Virus record (IMG/VR): IMGVR_UViG_3300044648_000096
Coordinates: 1 to 53,974 of that record
Reading direction: 5' to 3' (one strand)
DNA length: 53,974 nucleotides
Source of the DNA: a virus
Lineage: Duplodnaviria > Caudoviricetes
Every line of letters begins with the position of its first letter. Positions within the stretch are counted from its first letter, which is position 1. The position numbers were made by a program, and so were the translations under genes. Positions 5,660 through 52,986 of the stretch are shown one piece after another. The notes under the pieces were generated by a model. It made no database searches and was not told the origin of the DNA. It saw only the letters and a program-made list of their open reading frames with translations.

Positions 5660-5958
5660 ATATTGGCGACAAATATATTGACACCTATAATGAATTTAAT
5701 AATCCTAATTTTAACTTTATAGAAGGGCAATCTTATGACCCCGAAAAGTCCATTGTTGAAATAGTGGATATAACGCCAACATCGGTTTGTGTAAAATTAA
5801 GATCAAGACCGCTTAGGATTATGTACAAAGACGGCGGGGGAATATCTAAACCACTGGACAATTATAATCAGTGGTTTAAGCTCAAAAGAGAACATGAAGA
5901 AGAAATAGGATTTCACTTTAGATTTACAAAATCAGTAAATAATAATCAAACCAAATAA
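5656..5958 (+). CDS. Hypothetical protein
   Basis: 100-aa ORF in the operon. Confidence 0.6.
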   Translation: MNIGDKYIDTYNEFNNPNFNFIEGQSYDPEKSIVEIVDITPTSVCVKLRSRPLRIMYKDGGGISKPLDNYNQWFKLKREHEEEIGFHFRFTKSVNNNQTK

Positions 5959-5979
5959 TAATTACAAAATCTGTAAACT

Positions 5980-6501
5980 ATGAATCAAGATCAAAAACGC
6001 CAAGAATGGCGAGAAGCAAGACTAAAAGAACTTCAAAATCTGCCAATAGACGAATCATTCTCTATCCCGGCGGGACTTATCATTCCATTTGGAGATAACA
6101 TTCTCTTAAAGGAAGTAATGCAGGGAGAAATCAAATCCAAAAGCGGTATAATCACTAAAGTCCCTGCATCTAAAACAATCGGCGCATCCGTTGGATTAGT
6201 AATGGGCATTGGTGAGGAAGTTACAATCCCTGTACATTTAGGAATGAAAGTGTATTACGAACCAACTACAATGCTTAGGGTTTATCACAACGGGGATGAG
6301 TATATCCAAATGTCACAGCACTTGATTTTTGGAGCCGTACCACCTGAGACTTACCTAGAAGCTTATGTACCAGATTCTATCGCGCTTCGCCGGGAATCAA
6401 GACAAACCAATATGGCTAAGGTAGACGCTCAAGAAGAAGAAATCTTAAAAGAGTCGATTGAAACCAACACTCCTGTTGAAATAATAAAAAACAGACAATA
6501 G
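5980..6501 (+). CDS. groES: GroES/Cpn10-like co-chaperonin with terminal extensions
   Basis: IIPFGDNILLK...KSKSGII...GLVMGIG...LGMKVYY follows the Cpn10 pattern. Confidence 0.75.
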   Translation: MNQDQKRQEWREARLKELQNLPIDESFSIPAGLIIPFGDNILLKEVMQGEIKSKSGIITKVPASKTIGASVGLVMGIGEEVTIPVHLGMKVYYEPTTMLRVYHNGDEYIQMSQHLIFGAVPPETYLEAYVPDSIALRRESRQTNMAKVDAQEEEILKESIETNTPVEIIKNRQ

Positions 6502-6556
6502 TTTGTAACCTTTTATCAAAACATTCGTTTAAGTAAGTAGCAAAAACAAAACTTAA

Positions 6557-43698: not shown

Positions 43699-43722
43699 CA
43701 AATATAAATAGATGTTATAACA
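43699..43722 (-). promoter_or_regulatory. Bacteroidota-type -7 element plus TGTTATAACA palindrome
   Basis: TATATTTG on the - strand (43699-43706); palindrome at 43713-43722. Confidence 0.6.
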
Positions 43723-43750
43723 CACAATTCATAAGTTATTAACACTCACA

Positions 43751-45961
43751 TTATTCTGAGAGCATATCATTTGACATTTTGTGATTTTGCTCAATAACTT
43801 TGTTCTTTGCTTTATTGTCATCGACTTCCATTTGCACTTTACCTTTCAGCATAATATCATTGGAAGCTTGGTTTTGGCGATCTTCTCTGTCCTCTTGAGC
43901 GATCTGTAAGTTTGTTTGAAGTTGTTGTTGTTGCATTTGCATTTGCGCCTCACGGTCTGCTTGCGCTGACTCCTGAGCTATTTGCTGCACTCTTTGAAGT
44001 GATTCGCGGAAAATATTCTCAGCCTCAACAGTAGTCTCAGCCATTTCAAATCTCAAAGCATCTAAAGCACTTATTTCTTTGGTATTCATTCCAAACTCAA
44101 TATAAGCCCTCATGCGACTTCTTAATTCATTGTACTTGCCACCATCGTTAATATGCACACCATAATCCCTATATCCCAACTCGCGGGTGACTTGCATATA
44201 CTTATACTTCTCACTGCCTAGTATCTGCTCACCCTTGTCAAGTTTGTAAAACGCCCAGCTTACTTTTGTAGCCTCTACAATCTTTGTCATTACATTCTCG
44301 ACAAATAATTGCATCTGATAAAACAACGGTTCTGTCATTGTTCTACTTGCTTTAATCGCATCTTGAGAATTTGTTACAGTGGCGGAAGCGGCTATTTGTC
44401 CTTGTCGATTATCGTTAATCCCGGTAAGTCTATCTAGCGTATTTAAAAGCGTATCAAGTAATGCTAATATTCCTTCAAAGGATTGACTAAAACCAAGATC
44501 GTGTTCTTGCATCATTGATTTTAAATCAAGATTTTTCCCTGAGAAGTTTCCTGATGCTGCTGAGTTTGTAGTAATAAACCCATCATTCACCGCGTCATAC
44601 ATCAATTTCTTTAAAGTGGTGTTCTTTGGCAACGCAGCTAAGTCATACGCTAAAATCTTTCCTTTTGCCCTGTTAAGCTCTTTCATTAATTGGTACATCC
44701 CAATATCAAAAGCGGTATCAAAGTTCTCTATAACCTGCTGTAAAGGGATTCTGATACCGTCTACGGTTCCGAACAAACATCCAACATAAGAACTATCCAA
44801 AATATACGCTGGCGCATCATGGCTTCTCATTTGGAATGGCTTACGCCTCATGTTTACATCAAGCTCAGGCAAGCCACCAATTCGCGTAGCTTCCCATAAA
44901 TCTTCTTCCCACCCGGTTTCAATTTTGAAATGTCCTTTCTCCACACCCTTATCGTATTTAGCCTTGTTTGGCTCATATACATCATAAGGGATTTCATTCA
45001 TAATTTCAGTGGTAGTATCATCATAAGCCAACTGATTTGGGGTCTTTGGCATTATTTTATAATAAGACGGTTTAACTGATTTCCATTCTATATGAAGCAC
45101 AGTACACATTACCCCGCCTCCTTCGCCTTTAGCTAGCATACCCCGGCTTTGGCGTATATATGTTTCAGGATTTTGCTGCACATTGTACAATAAATCCCTT
45201 TGTTCTTTAGTTAATTCATACCTACGCAATACCTCATGGATAGGCATACGCATTCTGCATCCTTTGATCGGACTTTTCTCAATGAAATCATCCCCTTCTA
45301 TTTCTTCGTAAATGAAATCACGCGGGTCAATCTTCATAAAATCAACATCACCCTTTTCATTTATTTCAATCTTAGCAAAACACTTCCCGGTAATCCTTGC
45401 ATCTAAAAAACACTCTCCAAATTTCTTTACAAGTTTTAATGCTTTGATTTGCTCATTGACAATAATCTGCATTATATCTTCTTGCTTGTCCTTTGGACTC
45501 ATCTTTGCCCACAGAGGGTCGTCCTCACTCTCAGGTACGGGCGCACCTTCCATTACGTCTACCCCGGCTATTTCTTTTAATTCCGCTAATTCATCCTTAG
45601 CGATCATTGCTCCCATCATAAAATCCATTGCCGCCATCTTTTCAGATTTAGCCTGAATGTTTACGGTTTCAACAGTAGCGTTTAATGGTCTTGTTAACCA
45701 CTCTCCGCTCAATAAATCTTGTTTGGTTCTCCCCACGCGATAGGCAATGAATTTAGCCCTGTTCTGCACACCGTAAGTAGCTTCTAGCCACTTTATACTA
45801 TCGGGAGATTTAACGCCGTTATATGAGTTATAAAGCCGCGTAGCTTTATTTCTTTCGTTGTCTGCGTTGTTTAATAATGATTCTGCGTAGTCTAAGTGTT
45901 TTTTACACCATTCTGGTGTCTTTTCACTTTGCGGAATATCCTGTCTTGGAAAAATTGACAT
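43751..45961 (-). CDS. Portal protein
   Basis: 736 aa after the terminase; FPRQ.IP..EKT.EW start, LTGINDNRQGQI, Gln-rich C-terminal barrel helix. Confidence 0.85.
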   Translation of the reverse strand: MSIFPRQDIPQSEKTPEWCKKHLDYAESLLNNADNERNKATRLYNSYNGVKSPDSIKWLEATYGVQNRAKFIAYRVGRTKQDLLSGEWLTRPLNATVETVNIQAKSEKMAAMDFMMGAMIAKDELAELKEIAGVDVMEGAPVPESEDDPLWAKMSPKDKQEDIMQIIVNEQIKALKLVKKFGECFLDARITGKCFAKIEINEKGDVDFMKIDPRDFIYEEIEGDDFIEKSPIKGCRMRMPIHEVLRRYELTKEQRDLLYNVQQNPETYIRQSRGMLAKGEGGGVMCTVLHIEWKSVKPSYYKIMPKTPNQLAYDDTTTEIMNEIPYDVYEPNKAKYDKGVEKGHFKIETGWEEDLWEATRIGGLPELDVNMRRKPFQMRSHDAPAYILDSSYVGCLFGTVDGIRIPLQQVIENFDTAFDIGMYQLMKELNRAKGKILAYDLAALPKNTTLKKLMYDAVNDGFITTNSAASGNFSGKNLDLKSMMQEHDLGFSQSFEGILALLDTLLNTLDRLTGINDNRQGQIAASATVTNSQDAIKASRTMTEPLFYQMQLFVENVMTKIVEATKVSWAFYKLDKGEQILGSEKYKYMQVTRELGYRDYGVHINDGGKYNELRSRMRAYIEFGMNTKEISALDALRFEMAETTVEAENIFRESLQRVQQIAQESAQADREAQMQMQQQQLQTNLQIAQEDREDRQNQASNDIMLKGKVQMEVDDNKAKNKVIEQNHKMSNDMLSE

Positions 45962-45981
45962 ACTATGGGTAGATTATTACC

Positions 45982-46003
45982 CAAATATATGTTATAACAT
46001 CTA
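45982..46003 (-). promoter_or_regulatory. Bacteroidota-type -7 element plus ATGTTATAACAT palindrome
   Basis: TATATTTG on the - strand (45982-45989); palindrome at 45989-46000. Confidence 0.6.
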
Positions 46004-46022
46004 ATTTGTATTAATAACTTAT

Positions 46023-48032
46023 TCACATCCAACGTTTAGGATGGTCATGCTCATCACCCAAGAACGGGTTTAAGTTTTCTAACGGAACAACATTCCCATT
46101 TTTATCCTGTTGCCAAGAGCCTAAATCAAGAATATCAGGGTTATTCCAATCCTCTTTATTGCGCGGCTGGATTTCAAATGAAACATCTTGCATCAGAGCC
46201 ATGCCATAAGCATCAGCAAGGTCATTATCTGAGCCAATATAAGCTATATCGAAGTTTTGTAATTGATTTAATAATTCAGGGAACCATATCTGATTGCAGA
46301 AATAATCCACCGCCGACTGCATTAATCCCAACATCAACGGCTTGCTATAATTATTAAGAGATACACCCCACAAATGGGTTTGCTCAGAATTTTCAGATTC
46401 AAATTTACGTGGGCGGTATGCTAAATACTGCGCCATACCTTTCATTTCAAAGTGCTTTATCACCCCTGCCGATCTTACGTCACAAAGCACAGCTTCATGT
46501 AAATTAAAATGCACAGCTAATTTACAGCACATTTCATAAAACAATTCTTTGCGTTCCGGGCGGCAACAAATAGTGGCAACCGGGGCTAATTGCAATGCGT
46601 TAGGAATAGTGTTTCGTCTTATAATAACACACATACCTCCTTTAGATTTTGAGGTACGCGACAAATCCTGATCGTAACCATCTGTCCCAGAGCAATATAA
46701 GTGGTCGTAACCTTTGATAGGAGCAAGATGGTCTTGGTGTATTAAAAAACAAACACCATCTTCTGTAACGCTATTATCAATTTTAACTTCGGTTTGCGCG
46801 GGGAATAAATACTCTCCTGTTTTTAAGTCTTTTTTCCATTCAATCTGACATCTTACATACTTCTTTGGACTTGACATAATCTTGTCCATTTGGTCATTCA
46901 TTATATCAGTATCAAAAGCATTTACGATGGTCTTTCTGAAAATGTCAGCTTCGGTTAAAGGGTAATCTTTTAAATGCTCTTGGTATTTTTCAGAGTTCTT
47001 ACCCTTCATTATCTCTTTTCTCTCCGCGATAATGGTTTCTTTTGCAGCCTCAGTATCTTCTACCCCAACAGACTCAAAAGTCTTGTATTCCTTCTCTAAA
47101 TTCGGAATTTTTGGGATTTCTAAAGAACATCCACCATAAAACGGTTTATGAAATCTCTCTGCGGTTACTAAGAACTTAATAAAGTTGTTTTCTTCCGCCT
47201 CGTGCCACATTTTTTGAAAATCGCGGCTTCCTTTATTCATGTTACCGCCTGTTCCCCACATCCAAAAATTACCAATTTGAATACTACCGTCCATAATACA
47301 GGGGCGAGTATGGCTATAAAATTTCTCCAAGTGTTCAAACTCCCCGCATTCCTCAGCCATAACATCTACCAACGCCAATCCTTTAAACAATGCGGGAGAT
47401 TGTTTCATTGTACGTACATAAATAGTATTACGCGTTCCCCCTTCAATTAAAGAGCCATCTTCCCCGCGAAACTTGTATCCGGCTATTACCTGATCGTCGT
47501 TGTCCTTTAATTTCTTTACTCGTAGTTCAGGCGGCAACATAGATTCTGATGTGCGCCATTTACGCATAAAATCCTGAGCGTATAAGTCTTGTCCCGCCGC
47601 AACACCACACTGATATGCACCATTACGAAATCTAAAGTCATAATCGACCTTTGCCTTTTGGAACAATTCAGACGCTCCAATACGGCGTTTCTTAGCGCAA
47701 ATGAAATTCTTCTTATTAGCAATGCAATACTCAATCAAATAGATCATTTCAAGGTGTAAATCCACCATGTCGGGCGAGATAATACCCGCCGCCGCCGCCA
47801 TTGAGTTAAAATTGAGGTAATAATAGTAGCGTCCCGGTATAAATAACCCGCCAGTTTGGTATCCGTTGGTGATGTAATATAATTGCTCGTTCCACCAATC
47901 TTCCCATTGTGGAGTGCCGATAACTTTAGGATTTCTTATTGAGTCTGCAAAATCAGGGATTCCGTACTTTACAATAGGATTTGGACAATAGTTTTTGCCC
48001 TTTCTGTATGGTGGGCGGGCAATTATACTCAT
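46023..48032 (-). CDS. terL: Terminase large subunit
   Basis: Walker A-like KKRRIGAS, Walker B-like VMAEECG, WGTGG, RNase H-type GTDGYD and DLADA. Confidence 0.9.
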   Translation of the reverse strand: MSIIARPPYRKGKNYCPNPIVKYGIPDFADSIRNPKVIGTPQWEDWWNEQLYYITNGYQTGGLFIPGRYYYYLNFNSMAAAAGIISPDMVDLHLEMIYLIEYCIANKKNFICAKKRRIGASELFQKAKVDYDFRFRNGAYQCGVAAGQDLYAQDFMRKWRTSESMLPPELRVKKLKDNDDQVIAGYKFRGEDGSLIEGGTRNTIYVRTMKQSPALFKGLALVDVMAEECGEFEHLEKFYSHTRPCIMDGSIQIGNFWMWGTGGNMNKGSRDFQKMWHEAEENNFIKFLVTAERFHKPFYGGCSLEIPKIPNLEKEYKTFESVGVEDTEAAKETIIAERKEIMKGKNSEKYQEHLKDYPLTEADIFRKTIVNAFDTDIMNDQMDKIMSSPKKYVRCQIEWKKDLKTGEYLFPAQTEVKIDNSVTEDGVCFLIHQDHLAPIKGYDHLYCSGTDGYDQDLSRTSKSKGGMCVIIRRNTIPNALQLAPVATICCRPERKELFYEMCCKLAVHFNLHEAVLCDVRSAGVIKHFEMKGMAQYLAYRPRKFESENSEQTHLWGVSLNNYSKPLMLGLMQSAVDYFCNQIWFPELLNQLQNFDIAYIGSDNDLADAYGMALMQDVSFEIQPRNKEDWNNPDILDLGSWQQDKNGNVVPLENLNPFLGDEHDHPKRWM

Positions 48033-48589
48033 ACTCGTTGCGGTTTTTTATTCCGCACAATTTCGTAATTTTTCTTATTACGCTGTAAAATTTCTATGTA
48101 GCTGTTCTGCTGATCGCCTTTTAGTTGACCTTCCTTCAAAACATCTTCGTAAATCTCATTCTCGATAGCTTTTATGCGGTTATTAAGCATATCAATAGAC
48201 TTTAGACAGTTTTCAAGTGCTTTCCCGTCCAAAGTTGGGATTTCCCCCTGCAACTGCGCGACTTTATTGCGATAGGTTTGCTTTAATTCTTCTTTTTCAT
48301 CGTACTGCAACGACTTGTATGCCTCAATAGCCACCATTATACGGTGACTTTTATCATCATCTTCAATGGCCTTTAGGATTTTTGGGTTGTTGTCCCCAAA
48401 AGCCTCTATCATTGCCCTGCGAATTCGGTCTTGTTGGTTAAAACGACGAAATGGGCTGTGATAATCGTAGGCGGCAGCTATAAAGCATAATTCTTCGTCA
48501 GATATTCCCGACAGTTCAGGGCATAAAGCCACGCAAGCTGGGCGCAAGGCGACTTTGTTTTTTGTATCAAGATATATGACGTAGCTCAT
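48029..48589 (-). CDS. Conserved protein upstream of terL (possible terminase small subunit)
   Basis: YDYHSPF motif, helical, coupled to terL. Confidence 0.5.
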   Translation of the reverse strand: MSYVIYLDTKNKVALRPACVALCPELSGISDEELCFIAAAYDYHSPFRRFNQQDRIRRAMIEAFGDNNPKILKAIEDDDKSHRIMVAIEAYKSLQYDEKEELKQTYRNKVAQLQGEIPTLDGKALENCLKSIDMLNNRIKAIENEIYEDVLKEGQLKGDQQNSYIEILQRNKKNYEIVRNKKPQRV

Positions 48590-48933
48590 TAGTTGCTGTT
48601 TGGATTAAGCGATAACAATTCATCGCCGCTATCGAATTCCTCAACTAAAATTCCGTCAACTTCTTCCCCCCATCCGCGTTGTTCGGCTATATCTCTAGCC
48701 TCATTCCAATCGCCTGATTTTGAAACAATGATAGTTCCGCAATATGGGCGCGGTTCAAATTCGTTGTAAGGGCAATCGGCGGGAGCTTCCCCCATAACTT
48801 CGGTTGCTTTTTTGGCATCGAATACAGCTCTAGTTGTAAAAACTCGCTCATCGACTAACAAAACCTTCTTAAAGTTTTCGTCTTTAACCTCATCAAAAGC
48901 TCGGAAGTGTTTATTTACGTTTTTAGGTATCAT
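48589..48933 (-). CDS. Hypothetical protein
   Basis: 114-aa acidic ORF. Confidence 0.6.
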   Translation of the reverse strand: MIPKNVNKHFRAFDEVKDENFKKVLLVDERVFTTRAVFDAKKATEVMGEAPADCPYNEFEPRPYCGTIIVSKSGDWNEARDIAEQRGWGEEVDGILVEEFDSGDELLSLNPNSN

Positions 48934-48973
48934 TTTTACGGATTTTGTAATTTTTATTTCGGCGGGAGATTAT

Positions 48974-49195
48974 TTACTGATTTTGTAAAGAGGTGTCAAT
49001 GAATTTTACATCCGTCCCGTCAGGATTGAAAATTTTAACTGGATTTTCTACGTCTTTTCCAGAATAATTTCCACTTGCTTTTGAGCAATACACAATTACG
49101 CCCTCTTTTTTGTATTTCTCTATAATGTCATTCATTTTAGCGTTTTTGGGCAAGGCGGCTAAATCATAAGCTAGTATTTGTTTTTCTTCACTCAT
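48974..49195 (-). CDS. Mini-protein paralogous to an internal portal segment
   Basis: ILAYDLAALPKN-x21-ASGNYSGK versus portal ILAYDLAALPKN-x21-ASGNFSGK. Confidence 0.8.
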   Translation of the reverse strand: MSEEKQILAYDLAALPKNAKMNDIIEKYKKEGVIVYCSKASGNYSGKDVENPVKIFNPDGTDVKFIDTSLQNQ

Positions 49196-49947
49196 ATCAA
49201 AATGCTTTTTTGTAATAATTTCTCTTTTATCTTATCCTTGTTCAGCTCCAATAATGCCATGACATCGTGCTTTAAGTAAGGTACGTGTATTTTCTTGTGA
49301 TTCACTTTTCCCACGCGACAGGTCGATGGTTGTATCAAATGTATGAAAAGTTCTTTAATCTTTTTCCCGGTCAATTTCTCAGCGTGATACCCATAATAAC
49401 TTAACTGGAACGCTGTTTTCATAAACTTACTATTGGGTAAGTGATCGAAAGGAGCAAATAACCAACCTCTGCCTTTATACAAATCATCTTCCATGTTCTC
49501 ATAACATTTGGTGTCCGATAAAACAATTTGGCTGTCTTTGCGGTTAGTTGTTAGGCAAAGGGTGTCGGTTGTCCCGGCGGTTCTGAATTCTTCGCAATAA
49601 AGTATAGTTTGTGGGAATTTCTTAGCATACGCTCCGTACATCACCGACAGTTCTAACACCGCTAGCTGTATATCATTGAACTCGGCGGGGATTTCATCAT
49701 GCTTCAAGTAATGAGTTAAAGCGGCATCAACTCTTACCCCCTCCGATCTTTGTTCGTCCCATTTGGCTAATGTTTTTTCCATACCCTCTTGGTTTTTACC
49801 GCCAGTAAAGTATGCTATCTTATTAGCGTCAAATCTAGGGGCTAAGAATTCATAGCACTCGCTAAAAGACATATAGTAATTCCCCGCCGAATCGGTGTAT
49901 TCATGCGTTTCTTCATTAAGATTTACCTTTGCGGGGAATAAGCTCAT
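49192..49947 (-). CDS. PD-(D/E)xK exonuclease
   Basis: EETHEY, AGTTD...LSDTK, FQLSYY motifs. Confidence 0.75.
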   Translation of the reverse strand: MSLFPAKVNLNEETHEYTDSAGNYYMSFSECYEFLAPRFDANKIAYFTGGKNQEGMEKTLAKWDEQRSEGVRVDAALTHYLKHDEIPAEFNDIQLAVLELSVMYGAYAKKFPQTILYCEEFRTAGTTDTLCLTTNRKDSQIVLSDTKCYENMEDDLYKGRGWLFAPFDHLPNSKFMKTAFQLSYYGYHAEKLTGKKIKELFIHLIQPSTCRVGKVNHKKIHVPYLKHDVMALLELNKDKIKEKLLQKSILI

Positions 49948-50594
49948 AGTGACTGTAAGAATTTATATAATTCAAAATTCCACCTCGCGTCCGAAAGCGC
50001 ATTGTGTTCGTTTATTTGTTTCGGATATTTAGAGTGCCCCTTAAAAGACTTTAACGCAACATCAAAGCTGTTATTCCCTTTTATTCTATTAACCTCAAGG
50101 TCTACCATTTGCTTTAAGTCAACACAAAACATTGGAAATCCTTTTGGTAAATCAATCATTCTGCCAAACAAAGAACAAAATAATACCCAATCATAATCAG
50201 AATAATATCCATAAAACTCAGGATTATCAACTTTCATTTTAAGTCCATGTCTAATTCCACGAACTTCCTTCATTTCTTCTGGTAGCGGGTCATAAACCTT
50301 ACAACAACCCTCTCCATTATCACAAACGGCATAAGGCATTGTAAAATCAATGATTTCACTTGCTATTTGCCGATTTGATTTGGCGTATTTTTTTTCGTAA
50401 TTAATTGGTTTGATAACATTTTCTTTAACCCATTCATCTGCATCGTTTGGGTTAAATTCGTTGCTAACAGCATAATATTCGCGTCCGTCCTCAGCAATAA
50501 TTCCAACACTAATAAGGTCAATAAAATGCCTACGCTTACCAAATAAGGGCTTATGAAAGCCCTCTATGAACTCAAAATCTATAAAATACTTCAT
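49944..50594 (-). CDS. DEDDh 3'-5' exo(ribo)nuclease, Rv2179c-like
   Basis: YFIDFEF, LISVG, YYSDYDWV, DLKQ, HNALSDARW. Confidence 0.85.
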   Translation of the reverse strand: MKYFIDFEFIEGFHKPLFGKRRHFIDLISVGIIAEDGREYYAVSNEFNPNDADEWVKENVIKPINYEKKYAKSNRQIASEIIDFTMPYAVCDNGEGCCKVYDPLPEEMKEVRGIRHGLKMKVDNPEFYGYYSDYDWVLFCSLFGRMIDLPKGFPMFCVDLKQMVDLEVNRIKGNNSFDVALKSFKGHSKYPKQINEHNALSDARWNFELYKFLQSL

Positions 50595-51272
50595 TTATGC
50601 TGTTTTAGCGTTTAATTCTATTACAGGGGTTGTTTCTTCGTCGATAACAAAGTTCTCGTCGGGGTTAACGGTAATATATCCTTTGCCTTGTAAAAACTCC
50701 TGACAAAACGCCTTTTGTTCTTCCTCGCTCATGTTCTTGAAGTCATTCAAATCTTCCTCTCCTTTTTTACCCTTCCTTATAAGATTCTCCACATACCTCA
50801 GTCCCATTTCCTCAACCGATACTGGCCTATTCCCAGCCGCGTACTCCCTTACTTCCTCCAAAATCTCGCCAAAAATTTTCTTAACCTCAGCAAATTCAGG
50901 GTACTTATCTTCTTCCTCTAATACGGCGGTTTTCAACTTAATCGTTTTCCCCGTTTCCTGATTCACCAGCTTTGTCCCGGTAATTACAAAGGCATTGTTA
51001 CCTTTTAATTCCACATCGGTAATCGTAGTGTCATTCACCGCGAACTCAAATTCCATTTCATCGCGCGGGTTTTGACAAACTTCGCAGAGATTCAACAAAT
51101 GTGATCGCAATTCTTTAAACTTTTTCTCTAATCCCAAATGGATAGGATACTTCGGTTCGTGTTTGGCGGGAGTCATATAACTAAACCCGTCCTTAAATTC
51201 TTCTACTTTCCCTTTTAATTTTAAACCGCTAATTCCGTTTTCAACTAGCGTAACCCGTTCTATTATGTTCAT
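50595..51272 (-). CDS. Hypothetical protein
   Basis: 225-aa ORF coupled to both neighbours. Confidence 0.7.
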   Translation of the reverse strand: MNIIERVTLVENGISGLKLKGKVEEFKDGFSYMTPAKHEPKYPIHLGLEKKFKELRSHLLNLCEVCQNPRDEMEFEFAVNDTTITDVELKGNNAFVITGTKLVNQETGKTIKLKTAVLEEEDKYPEFAEVKKIFGEILEEVREYAAGNRPVSVEEMGLRYVENLIRKGKKGEEDLNDFKNMSEEEQKAFCQEFLQGKGYITVNPDENFVIDEETTPVIELNAKTA

Positions 51273-52162
51273 ATTTCTATTTTTAATTGATTTTTTCTTT
51301 TGTTTTCATAAAACTTTAACATTGATTGTCTCATTTTTTCAAGGGTTTCTTTACTTCTTGGCGGCCTTTTACTTTGAAATTCACTCATTTTTTTTCTAGC
51401 CTCAACAGATGCTTTCCTACCTTTTAGTTTAGCTTTAGTTTCATCAGAAAGCTTTTTGCCTAATTTTGCTTCTCTTATTTTCTGCTTAGTCTCGATAGAA
51501 TGTTTCTTGCCATAAAAAGGATTTCGCTCTCCATTTATGTTATCGCAAAACTTTAACCGATGCTCTTTAGATAATTTTTTTCCCTTCTTTTTTTCACTAA
51601 GAAGTTTTTTAGTTTCTTCATTGTGCTTTTTTCCAAAAAAAGGATTGCTCTCTCCAAATTTCCTAACACCATTAAAATTAGAATTTTTTCTCATTTTTTC
51701 TATGGTTTCAGGTTTATGTTTTTTACCAACCCACCATTTAGATATTTTTTCTGCGTGTTCTGGCGATAATTTTTTTCCTTTTCTAGCTGCGCTAATTTTC
51801 TTTTTAGCTTCTTCTGATAACGGAATACCCATCCTAGAGTCAGCCTTTTTAAGAACATTATATTCTGGACATAAAGAATCAAGATAAAACTGCTCCCTTG
51901 AAATAATAAACTCTTTTTTTATTTCTTCTATAATTTCTAAAACCTCAAACGAAAAAGAAGATTCTCCATACTTATTAAAATCATTTTGGAGTTTGAAGCT
52001 GTGATGTTTTCCTTTTCTCAACGTAATCAAATGAGAATTTTTTCTAATTCTCATGTTTAATGTAGAACCAATATATATCTTTCCGTTTATAACATTTGTT
52101 ATACTATAAATACAACAAAAATCTGTTTTGCTGTGATCTTCTATTTTATTCCAAAATGCCAT
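51269..52162 (-). CDS. GIY-YIG homing endonuclease with NUMOD3-type repeats
   Basis: CIYSITNVINGKIYIGS, REQFYLD, YN; repeated NPFFGKKH.EETK. Confidence 0.9.
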   Translation of the reverse strand: MAFWNKIEDHSKTDFCCIYSITNVINGKIYIGSTLNMRIRKNSHLITLRKGKHHSFKLQNDFNKYGESSFSFEVLEIIEEIKKEFIISREQFYLDSLCPEYNVLKKADSRMGIPLSEEAKKKISAARKGKKLSPEHAEKISKWWVGKKHKPETIEKMRKNSNFNGVRKFGESNPFFGKKHNEETKKLLSEKKKGKKLSKEHRLKFCDNINGERNPFYGKKHSIETKQKIREAKLGKKLSDETKAKLKGRKASVEARKKMSEFQSKRPPRSKETLEKMRQSMLKFYENKRKNQLKIEI

Positions 52163-52542: not shown

Positions 52543-52826
52543 TACAAGTTCTGTAAATTTTTATCGTCGGCGGGATTTTTTACATCTTCTGTAAATTCTA
52601 CACTCAATATCCCCAACAACTCCGATCTATTCTTAGCCAACCTCGCAGCAATCAAATTTAAAACCCTGTCCCTTTCTTTCTTATCCGACTCATAATTCTC
52701 ACTATACAAAATAGGAAAACTAACAAGACTCATTAATTCCTCATCACCCCTTATCAACCCAATCAACTCACCCTTACGACTACTTTCCATTCGCCAACCC
52801 CTTCCTATATTCCTCCAACTTCTCAA
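52542..52826 (-). CDS. Hypothetical protein (start likely MESSRK)
   Basis: ORF coupled to both neighbours. Confidence 0.55.
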   Translation of the reverse strand: MRSWRNIGRGWRMESSRKGELIGLIRGDEELMSLVSFPILYSENYESDKKERDRVLNLIAARLAKNRSELLGILSVEFTEDVKNPADDKNLQNL

Positions 52827-52986
52827 TCTCCGCCAACTTCAAATCAATAGCACCATTCATCAAATCCGTCAAACTCCCATACTTACCCTTCCACTCCCGC
52901 AACCTCGCCAACCTTACCCTGCTAACCCTTACACTATCCGTCTCATCAGCCATAATCCTTTCACTACTATTTTTATTCTCACTCAT
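52780..52986 (-). CDS. Small ribbon-helix-helix-like DNA-binding protein
   Basis: SVRVS..RLARL...SLTDLMNGAI; first gene after TACATTTG (52991-52998). Confidence 0.45.
   Translation of the reverse strand: MSENKNSSERIMADETDSVRVSRVRLARLREWKGKYGSLTDLMNGAIDLKLAEIEKLEEYRKGLANGK

Follow-up and report, generated by a model that had tools for sequence, protein, structure and literature searches.

A family of phage mini-proteins that appears to descend from the clip domain of a crAss-like portal

The linear IMG/VR virus record IMGVR_UViG_3300044648_000096 (53,974 bases, estimated to be 71% complete, and referred to here in its full length as the window) derives from a soil phage related to crAss-like phages. 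It carries a gene for a protein of only 73 amino acids, hereafter called mini, that resembles an internal segment of the portal protein encoded by the same phage. We conclude with high confidence that mini is a real gene and that it represents a new family, and equally high is our confidence that this family of small proteins is previously undescribed: titles, abstracts and some passages of the literature contain no description of a stand-alone clip-domain family or of a phage-encoded portal mimic. Structural modelling places the portal segment that resembles mini in the clip domain, and sequence comparisons indicate that the mini family descends from the clip of one particular clade of crAss-like portals; a known domain has thus been released as an independent gene family. 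With regard to its function, we suggest that mini may imitate the clip and compete for something that binds clips; that the partner belongs to the phage's own assembly line is the reading to which we assign a probability of about 0.4. Our confidence in its mechanism is low.

A first-pass annotation of the window, made from the nucleotide sequence, had described the gene as a copy of a segment of the phage's own portal, and the observations on which this description was built are reproduced exactly. The peptide ILAYDLAALPKN, present at residues 7-18 of mini, is identical in all 12 positions to residues 436-447 of the portal, and eight of the 12 codons differ, all of them synonymously, while four are identical. 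A second block, ASGNYSGK in mini (residues 40-47) and ASGNFSGK in the portal (residues 469-476), follows after a gap-free spacer of 21 residues, as had been claimed, and matches in seven of its eight positions. Over the entire gap-free register, 24 of the 73 residues of mini are identical to the portal segment (33%), and a translated search of the record with mini recovers the portal at E = 1.6e-9. The portal motif is found on the same strand as mini, and the portal gene is located 3 kb downstream.

The window portal alone matches the portal protein gp20 of PhicrAss001 (PDB accession code 7qog) with an E-value of 7.1e-17, and a profile of 30 sequences, composed of this portal and related ones, does so at 1.4e-209. 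In an AlphaFold2 (AF2) model of the window portal, with a predicted local distance difference test score (pLDDT) of 75.4, the segment in question is situated between two long helices (residues 407-433 and 494-513) and consists of a strand (438-440), a helix (450-460) and a further strand (463-465), followed by a poorly modelled loop. Structure prediction, suggested by the annotation as a means to place the segment on the portal, hence assigns it to the clip between the two stem helices, and on the strength of this model we regard it as the clip domain. Portals, according to passages of PMC12847820, have two stem helices, and the connection between them is the clip, made up of three strands and one helix. 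Part of PMC10359639 names the clip as the place where first the large terminase and afterwards adaptor proteins dock, and an excerpt of PMC10172136 reports that the clip of the PhicrAss001 portal touches the tail barrel. The large terminase is a natural clip-binding partner.

Mini aligns only to residues 431-476 of the portal, and at most up to about residue 493, without any counterpart of stem, wing or crown. It is therefore no portal, since a protein of 73 amino acids that aligns to the clip segment only contrasts with a chain of about 700 amino acids built from wing, stem, clip and crown. When compared with a crAss-like portal clip such as that of PhicrAss001 gp20, the likeness consists of homology in sequence, spanning some 45 columns, with the clips from the portal clade of the window, and of a predicted strand-helix-strand arrangement in the same register (mini strand 9-11, helix 21-31 and strand 34-36 correspond to the portal elements named above in the AF2 models), for which the mini model is not an independent witness. 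The differences are that mini stands alone, lacks the stem helices, the wing and the crown, and possesses a C-terminal part of its own. The ESM Atlas contains no feature match for mini, and its model of mini has a pLDDT of 0.42; at this value the structural neighbors listed for it are meaningless. A complex prediction with mini and portal residues 395-525 reached a score of 0.09 against a mark of 0.32 and was run without controls; it is neither support nor counter-evidence and was not used.

Mini is by no means a singular protein. A scan of 80 IMG/VR loci with related portals revealed an open reading frame (ORF) of 136 codons in the loci L002 and L003, the C-terminal half of whose product is like mini (phmmer E = 0.0025 among 11,305 ORFs; pairwise BLASTP 6e-7). 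With a profile made of two sequences, mini and the C-terminal domain of the L002 protein (A3), a full HMMER search of 1.84 billion representative proteins was conducted, and it returned 72 proteins at E ≤ 1e-3: the two queries, 62 proteins with a single match and eight long proteins with 4-7 matched stretches each. The latter were set aside, and the three of them that were read (P0020, P0022, P0038) are repeat proteins. The 62 single-match proteins are 54-152 amino acids long, with most of them in the range of 69-90, and they cover the whole profile. Together with the two queries they form a family alignment of 64 rows (A5) that holds no portal sequences and in which Tyr10, Asp11, Pro16 and Pro53 are conserved in at least 90% of the members; the C-terminal part of mini features this conserved Pro53 and an end of the type hydrophobic-K-hydrophobic-hydrophobic-D. 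The hidden Markov model (HMM) of the family, which includes mini, matches it at E = 3.6e-20. The nearest relatives of the window mini (P0013, P0009, P0011, P0041) are 36-49% identical to it, with P0013 reaching 50% in the alignment used for the tree described below. The similar mini-paralogues whose existence elsewhere the annotation had proposed to check are thus provided by the 62 further small proteins. Of its description as a copy of the own portal, the homology of a real gene to an internal portal segment stands; the gene belongs, however, to an older and wider family with 62 other members.

Most members of the family stem from Logan/ENA assemblies, and a few reside on contigs of 74-79 kb. 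None of the 64 sequences matches a family in Pfam (E ≤ 0.01) or PHROGs v4 (E ≤ 0.001), and the only match of mini itself, PF18618 (HP0268) of Pfam, is below threshold (E = 0.057; 14 bits versus a cut-off of 25). Searches with mini as the sole query returned chance matches only from INPHARED (tblastn; E-values between 0.7 and 9), no match in IMG/VR pattern scans and only mini itself in a word-index search of 5.8 billion clusters; tblastn searches of INPHARED with P0013, P0005 and P0030 had no match either. Among the matches listed in scans of metagenome contigs with P0044 and the alignment A10, no relative was confirmed, and in the search of related loci alignment A6 found no match and A9 returned only L002/L003. 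A locus (L118) picked up by a genome-contig scan with P0030 proved spurious, as it encodes a solute-binding protein that shares one 8-mer and has no HMM match.

That mini is a chance ORF or a non-functional remnant might be considered in view of its lack of a Pfam or PHROGs family and of RNA or protein support; the search of sequencing runs for the window listed no RNA run. Against this stand the 62 diverged full-length relatives with their conserved residues, an intact reading frame whose coupled start (ATGA) is kept in two lineages, and the presence of identical DNA fragments in a second soil study, and we consider a chance ORF to be essentially excluded. Two runs, X1, which is probably the source of the window, and X2 (the second soil study), contain pieces identical to the window and no variants in mini; a third run (X3) covers only part of ORF114, a neighbor of mini. 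The short contigs in X2, of which there are many, are identical to parts of the interval 43700-50000 of the window and represent the portal, the terminase, the exonuclease and part of the mini region. As X2 comes from another soil study, the window phage occurs in more than one sample.

The relationship between the family and the portal clip can be assessed without portal sequences in the query. The portal-free A5 HMM matches the clip (amino acids ~427-500) of every portal in the window's clade, with E-values of 5.2e-9 for the window portal (amino acids 434-484), 1.3e-9 for L001, 9.4e-8 for L004, 7.2e-7 for L011, 5.2e-6 for L002/3 and 1.8e-5 to 2.1e-4 for L005-L010. Further portals of the clade gave E-values of 1.4e-10 (L083), 9.6e-9 (L086) and ~1e-7 (L088/L089), and the whole records agree with this. 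An hhalign comparison of A5 with an alignment of 30 portals pairs positions 2-54 of mini with positions 431-476 of the portal over 45 columns (probability 95.6%; E = 1.3e-8). When searched against PDB sequences, the best hit of the family profile had an E-value of 1.3, and 7qog itself was not reached.

A maximum-likelihood tree of the 64 minis and 35 portal clips, calculated by a quick method from 76 columns and of correspondingly limited resolution, places 63 of the 64 minis in one group (Shimodaira-Hasegawa-like approximate likelihood ratio test support of 90), and its sister group consists of the 12 clips belonging to the portal clade of the window; minis and clade clips together have a support of 98 and are nested among the other crAss-like clips. 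The remaining member, P0071, is placed among the portals. P0009, P0011, P0013 and P0041 are the minis with which that of the window groups, away from its own portal. This topology is most simply read as a single event in the distant past by which the clip became a gene of its own, with no recent duplication in the window phage, and these comparisons show that the mini family goes back to the clip domain of a single crAss-like portal clade.

How unusual is the 12-residue match against this background of shared ancestry? By the Nei-Gojobori method, the motif contains 8.0 synonymous differences on 8.3 synonymous sites (proportion of synonymous differences, pS, 0.96), a value that is saturated, and no difference on 27.7 non-synonymous sites (pN 0), as compared with a pN of 0.48 across the rest of the aligned core of mini and portal. 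Four motif codons are identical, against an expectation of 4.4 for independent draws from the codon usage of the phage. The nucleotide trace of common descent has consequently been erased in the motif, with the peptide unchanged. Since synonymous sites have been randomised while the 12 residues stayed, or became, identical, selection on the surface formed by the motif is indicated in both genes. The annotation had likewise argued for selection on the peptide instead of a recent duplication, and the saturated synonymous sites, the lack of replacements in the motif and the position of mini among minis in the tree concur with it.

A recent partial duplication of the phage's own portal gene, either decaying or newly co-opted, would account for the 12/12 identity, for the second block in register, and for the location of mini, which lies 3 kb upstream of the portal and is encoded on the same strand. 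It is incompatible with the saturation of the synonymous sites, and the window mini is closer to minis from unrelated samples (up to 50% identity) than to its own portal segment (33%). It is also at odds with the nesting of mini among minis in the tree and with the presence of a mini at the same site in the loci L119 and L120. A recent duplication is therefore essentially excluded.

Over all 1024 combinations of the 64 minis with 16 portal clips, the most frequent motif identity is 4/12. A value of 12/12 is reached by the window's own pair only; the next best are one pair at 10/12 (P0071 with the L083 portal) and four pairs at 9/12. Judged by column frequencies, a family member would carry the 12-mer of the window portal with a probability of 9e-6, or of 2.5e-5 when the calculation is confined to the closer subfamily. 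In other portals the motif is variable, with two of 12 positions differing even between the 94% identical portals of L119 and L120. The exact identity is accordingly a peculiarity of the window's lineage, and these sequence data suggest that it arose by convergence under selection or by an old and short conversion tract and that, with either origin, purifying selection on both genes has maintained it since. Of the two matching blocks that the annotation had emphasized, only the 12-mer is specific to the own portal. The ASGN[Y/F]SGK block is family-level homology: it is common to a subfamily of minis (e.g., P0009, P0011, P0041, P0055) and to the portal clade, and is for this reason inherited and no special match to the own portal.

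The genomic context points to an accessory gene. In the window, the stop codon of the exonuclease-like gene and the start codon of mini overlap as ATGA, and mini is followed on the same strand by ORF114, a gene for a 186-residue protein and the genes for the large terminase subunit (TerL), the portal, a scaffold-like protein and the major capsid protein (Table 1). Mini itself stands among replication and recombination genes, outside the structural block. At the same junction, L119 and L120 possess a mini of 73 amino acids (in the order exonuclease, ATGA, mini, 186-residue protein gene, TerL, portal); their portals are 53% and their minis 33% identical to those of the window. An interpretation of mini and ORF114 as one window-specific insertion is ruled out, as the mini of L119/L120 is present at this junction without ORF114. 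In L002/L003, the mini-family domain is fused behind an N-terminal domain, and the family HMM matches residues 62-132 of the L002 protein at 2e-27. A further member is found directly after an MmcB-like nuclease gene on L121, a 74-kb fragment (39% complete) of a larger phage. Overlaps of the ATGA type between the stop of a nuclease-type gene and the start of a mini were observed for L121:9525-10285 (+), for positions 49192-49947 (-) of the window and for L119:3375-4342 (+); no pairwise similarity was detected between the phrog_298 exonuclease and the MmcB-like nuclease. The mini gene is accessory, patchy and mobile between related genomes.

Table 1. Positions of mini, its matching portal segments and the neighboring genes in the window.
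Feature	Position	Strand	Remarks
Mini gene	48974..49195	-	73 amino acids, ATG start; stand-alone homologue of the portal clip domain
Mini residues 7-18, ILAYDLAALPKN	49142..49177	-	Predicted first strand and turn
Mini residues 40-47, ASGNYSGK	49055..49078	-	Common to mini subfamily B and clips of the portal clade
Portal gene, 736 amino acids	43751..45961	-	crAss-like type; phrog_6547 at 3.4e-51
Portal clip domain (predicted), ~amino acids 434-493	44483..44662	-	Between stem helices 407-433 and 494-513; AF2 model and family HMM
Portal residues 436-447, ILAYDLAALPKN	44621..44656	-	Same peptide as mini residues 7-18
Large terminase subunit (TerL) gene	46023..48032	-	phrog_6681 at 2.9e-59
186-amino-acid protein gene	48029..48589	-	Directly upstream of TerL, candidate small-terminase position; conserved beside TerL in L001-L010 and L119/L120
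ORF114 (114 amino acids), orphan between mini and the 186-amino-acid protein gene	48589..48933	-	
Exonuclease-like gene, directly upstream of mini	49192..49947	-	phrog_298 at 1.7e-9
68-amino-acid protein gene	52780..52986	-	Homologous to the N-terminal half of the L002/L003 136-amino-acid protein

Some of the neighboring genes merit a brief comment. ORF114 has no family in Pfam or PHROGs and no matching ORF in any related locus examined, and its search against 5.8 billion protein clusters gave only the self-match; its 5' part is matched, with seven differences, by a 187-base contig from run X3, a plant metagenome. No significant Pfam or PHROGs family was found for the 186-residue protein. The small protein encoded at 52780..52986 is 46% identical over 50 amino acids to the 136-residue protein of L002/L003 (E = 6e-11), and the latter (L002:3093-3503, +) represents a fusion link between this gene of the window and mini. 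Positions 51269-52162 (-) hold a gene of the homing-endonuclease type with GIY-YIG and NUMOD3 domains (PF01541, 9e-8; PF07460, 3e-28); it is located in the replication/recombination block and has no counterpart at that place in L002 or L004. The large terminase of L002/L003 (L002:6775-9927, +) comprises 1050 amino acids compared with the usual ~670, and contains an intein with a LAGLIDADG homing-endonuclease domain (PF14890, 6e-9; PF14528, 5.9e-10). On L121, an ORF of 270 codons (5707-6519, -) consists mostly of tandem heptad-like repeats of the type AYDSA(N/S)V(K/E). When L119:1-9190 is compared with L120 (offset +3064), the DNA is 100% identical from the shared left end through TerL; inside the portal gene the identity is ~86-90%, with 144 of 1422 bases and 27 residues differing, of which two residues lie in the motif. 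A recombination breakpoint is thereby located inside the portal gene, and portal segments are therefore exchanged independently of the genes upstream.

What might a free-standing clip do for a phage? Since it has retained of the portal only the clip module, without stem, wing or crown, mini is unable to form a portal and could still present a clip surface. We suggest that it would occupy a surface normally bound to the portal clip, be it on the clip of a neighboring portal subunit, on the large terminase or on the first neck ring, and that this occupancy would time or limit the assembly of the portal and the packaging motor, as a truncated paralogue of the microProtein type would. In the window's lineage, the 12 residues of the predicted first strand and turn have been kept, or made, identical to those of the portal. 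That the 12-mer is held identical because mini stands in for the clip, either as a decoy for a sensor or as a cap that times the engagement of terminase or portal subunits, is a narrower claim that we regard as possible and somewhat doubtful.

MicroProteins are truncated dominant-negative paralogues known from the literature on plant and animal transcription factors. Mini resembles them insofar as it derives from, and retains only, the interaction module of a larger multi-domain protein, without the other domains and as a separate gene; the difference is that the concept stems from eukaryotic regulators and that contact of mini with the parent complex is putative. A second comparison can be made with Ppi of the Staphylococcus aureus pathogenicity islands (SaPI), a packaging-interference protein of phage satellites that binds the small terminase. 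Both would be small in size and would influence the packaging machinery by attaching to one of its components; Ppi, however, is encoded by a satellite against its helper phage and is not derived from a portal, whereas mini is encoded in the phage itself.

A number of observations weigh against mini being a clip mimic. Its AF2 model has a pLDDT of 56.6, with strand-helix-strand elements at residues 9-36 and an unmodelled C-terminal part; since the underlying alignment was made of portal segments, this model is not independent of that of the portal. Outside the motif, the window mini shares 7 of 25 residues with its own portal and 4-9 of 25 with foreign portals. Co-variation of mini with the cognate portal, which the annotation had proposed as a check, is not seen: the comparison comprises four cognate pairs, and motif identity amounts to 12/12 in the window, 3/12 in L002/L003, 2/12 in L119 and 3/12 in L120, so that only the window pair matches. 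L119 and L120 share an identical mini and differ in their portal clips, and the mini family thus need not track its portal. Seven distinct loci (L002/3, L004, L005, L006, L008, L009, L010) proceed from the exonuclease directly to the 186-residue protein gene without a mini at the syntenic site, and a relative of 68.6 kb with a completeness of 90% likewise has no mini; the gene is hence dispensable. On the L121 fragment, no crAss-like portal was detected. Furthermore, 18 of the 64 family members carry at least five Lys/Arg residues among the 12 residues preceding the first strand, several of them as PRKLKK tails, and several possess extra N-terminal domains (the 136-residue protein of L002; P0009, P0015, P0045).

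The last two of these features also speak for an alternative in which mini is an exapted small fold whose job is unrelated to the partners of the portal, for instance that of a regulator associated with nucleic acids or nucleases, and in which the 12-mer is left over from an old and short gene conversion and is kept under structural constraint only. Two independent contexts (the window and L119/L120 on the one hand, L121 on the other) in which the start of a mini overlaps with the stop codon of a nuclease-type gene, and the lack of motif mimicry in three of the four cognate pairs fit this alternative as well. The two nucleases, however, have no detectable similarity to each other and represent only two contexts, so that this adjacency may be coincidental. 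Pfam detected no DNA-binding family in the N-terminal extensions of family members, and a ribbon-helix-helix label given by eye to the N-terminal half of the L002 protein was dropped because it lacked Pfam support. Structural constraint alone, moreover, does not explain zero replacements at synonymous saturation, since these 12 positions are free to vary both in the portals and in the minis. We consider this alternative to be unlikely.

The clip is also a target of bacterial immunity, and mini could be an immune decoy, which the annotation had proposed beside a dominant-negative role in portal/terminase assembly or superinfection: a free clip, being monomeric, would bind a host sensor of the SpbK type or an Avs4-like STAND protein (signal transduction ATPase with numerous domains) without offering it the platform needed for activation. 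Passages of PMC12847820 report that SpbK's N-terminal domain docks on the clips of the SPbeta portal, that SpbK must cluster on the 12-fold clip ring and that an escape mutation maps to the clip helix; EcAvs4, according to the same passages, contacts the stem, the clip and the wing of the portal. The pairs SpbK-YonE and EcAvs4-portal in these parts of PMC12847820 are the only documented cases of non-phage proteins docking on a portal clip that we found, and because of them a free clip is a conceivable competitor or decoy. Both are sensors of the host, unlike the phage-encoded mini, and no phage-encoded clip decoy is described in these passages. Avs1-4 and Avs11 sense the portal or the terminase, as stated in a portion of bioRxiv 10.64898/2026.01.04.697583. 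The mini gene is small and fast-evolving, in the manner of accessory and counter-defence genes, lies with replication and recombination genes outside the structural block, and is patchy among relatives (the window and L119/L120 possess it, and L002/L003 have it in fused form). An epitope decoy would need an exact match to a surface element, such as mini has with the own portal. Conversely, none of the six family members tested against PADLOC 2.0, a library of defence proteins that does not contain counter-defence proteins, had a match, and three of the four cognate pairs lack mimicry of the motif. The Avs sensors, as described in part of bioRxiv 10.64898/2026.01.04.697583, wrap extended fold surfaces and recognize no short motifs, which implies that a fragment comprising only the clip may bind them poorly. 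We judge an immune decoy to be rather improbable, and competition of a clip mimic for a clip-binding partner of the phage itself is the reading that we put forward.

The portal clip is a hub: it serves the packaging motor and the neck as a docking site, and bacterial immune sensors, of at least two kinds, dock there too. A family of free-standing clips provides a natural reagent and a testable handle on the contacts made by the clip, on a self-regulated assembly of the portal and on the hiding of the portal from immunity. The set of small proteins without annotation in soil crAss-like phages grows by 62 further clusters, defined at 50% identity, and the family constitutes a clean example of a structural domain that has been released as a separate gene. 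Should mini indeed stand in for the clip, the phages of this clade would have turned the docking module of their portal into a separate family of mobile mini-genes, and this would be the first family of virion-domain mimics that is encoded by the virus itself.
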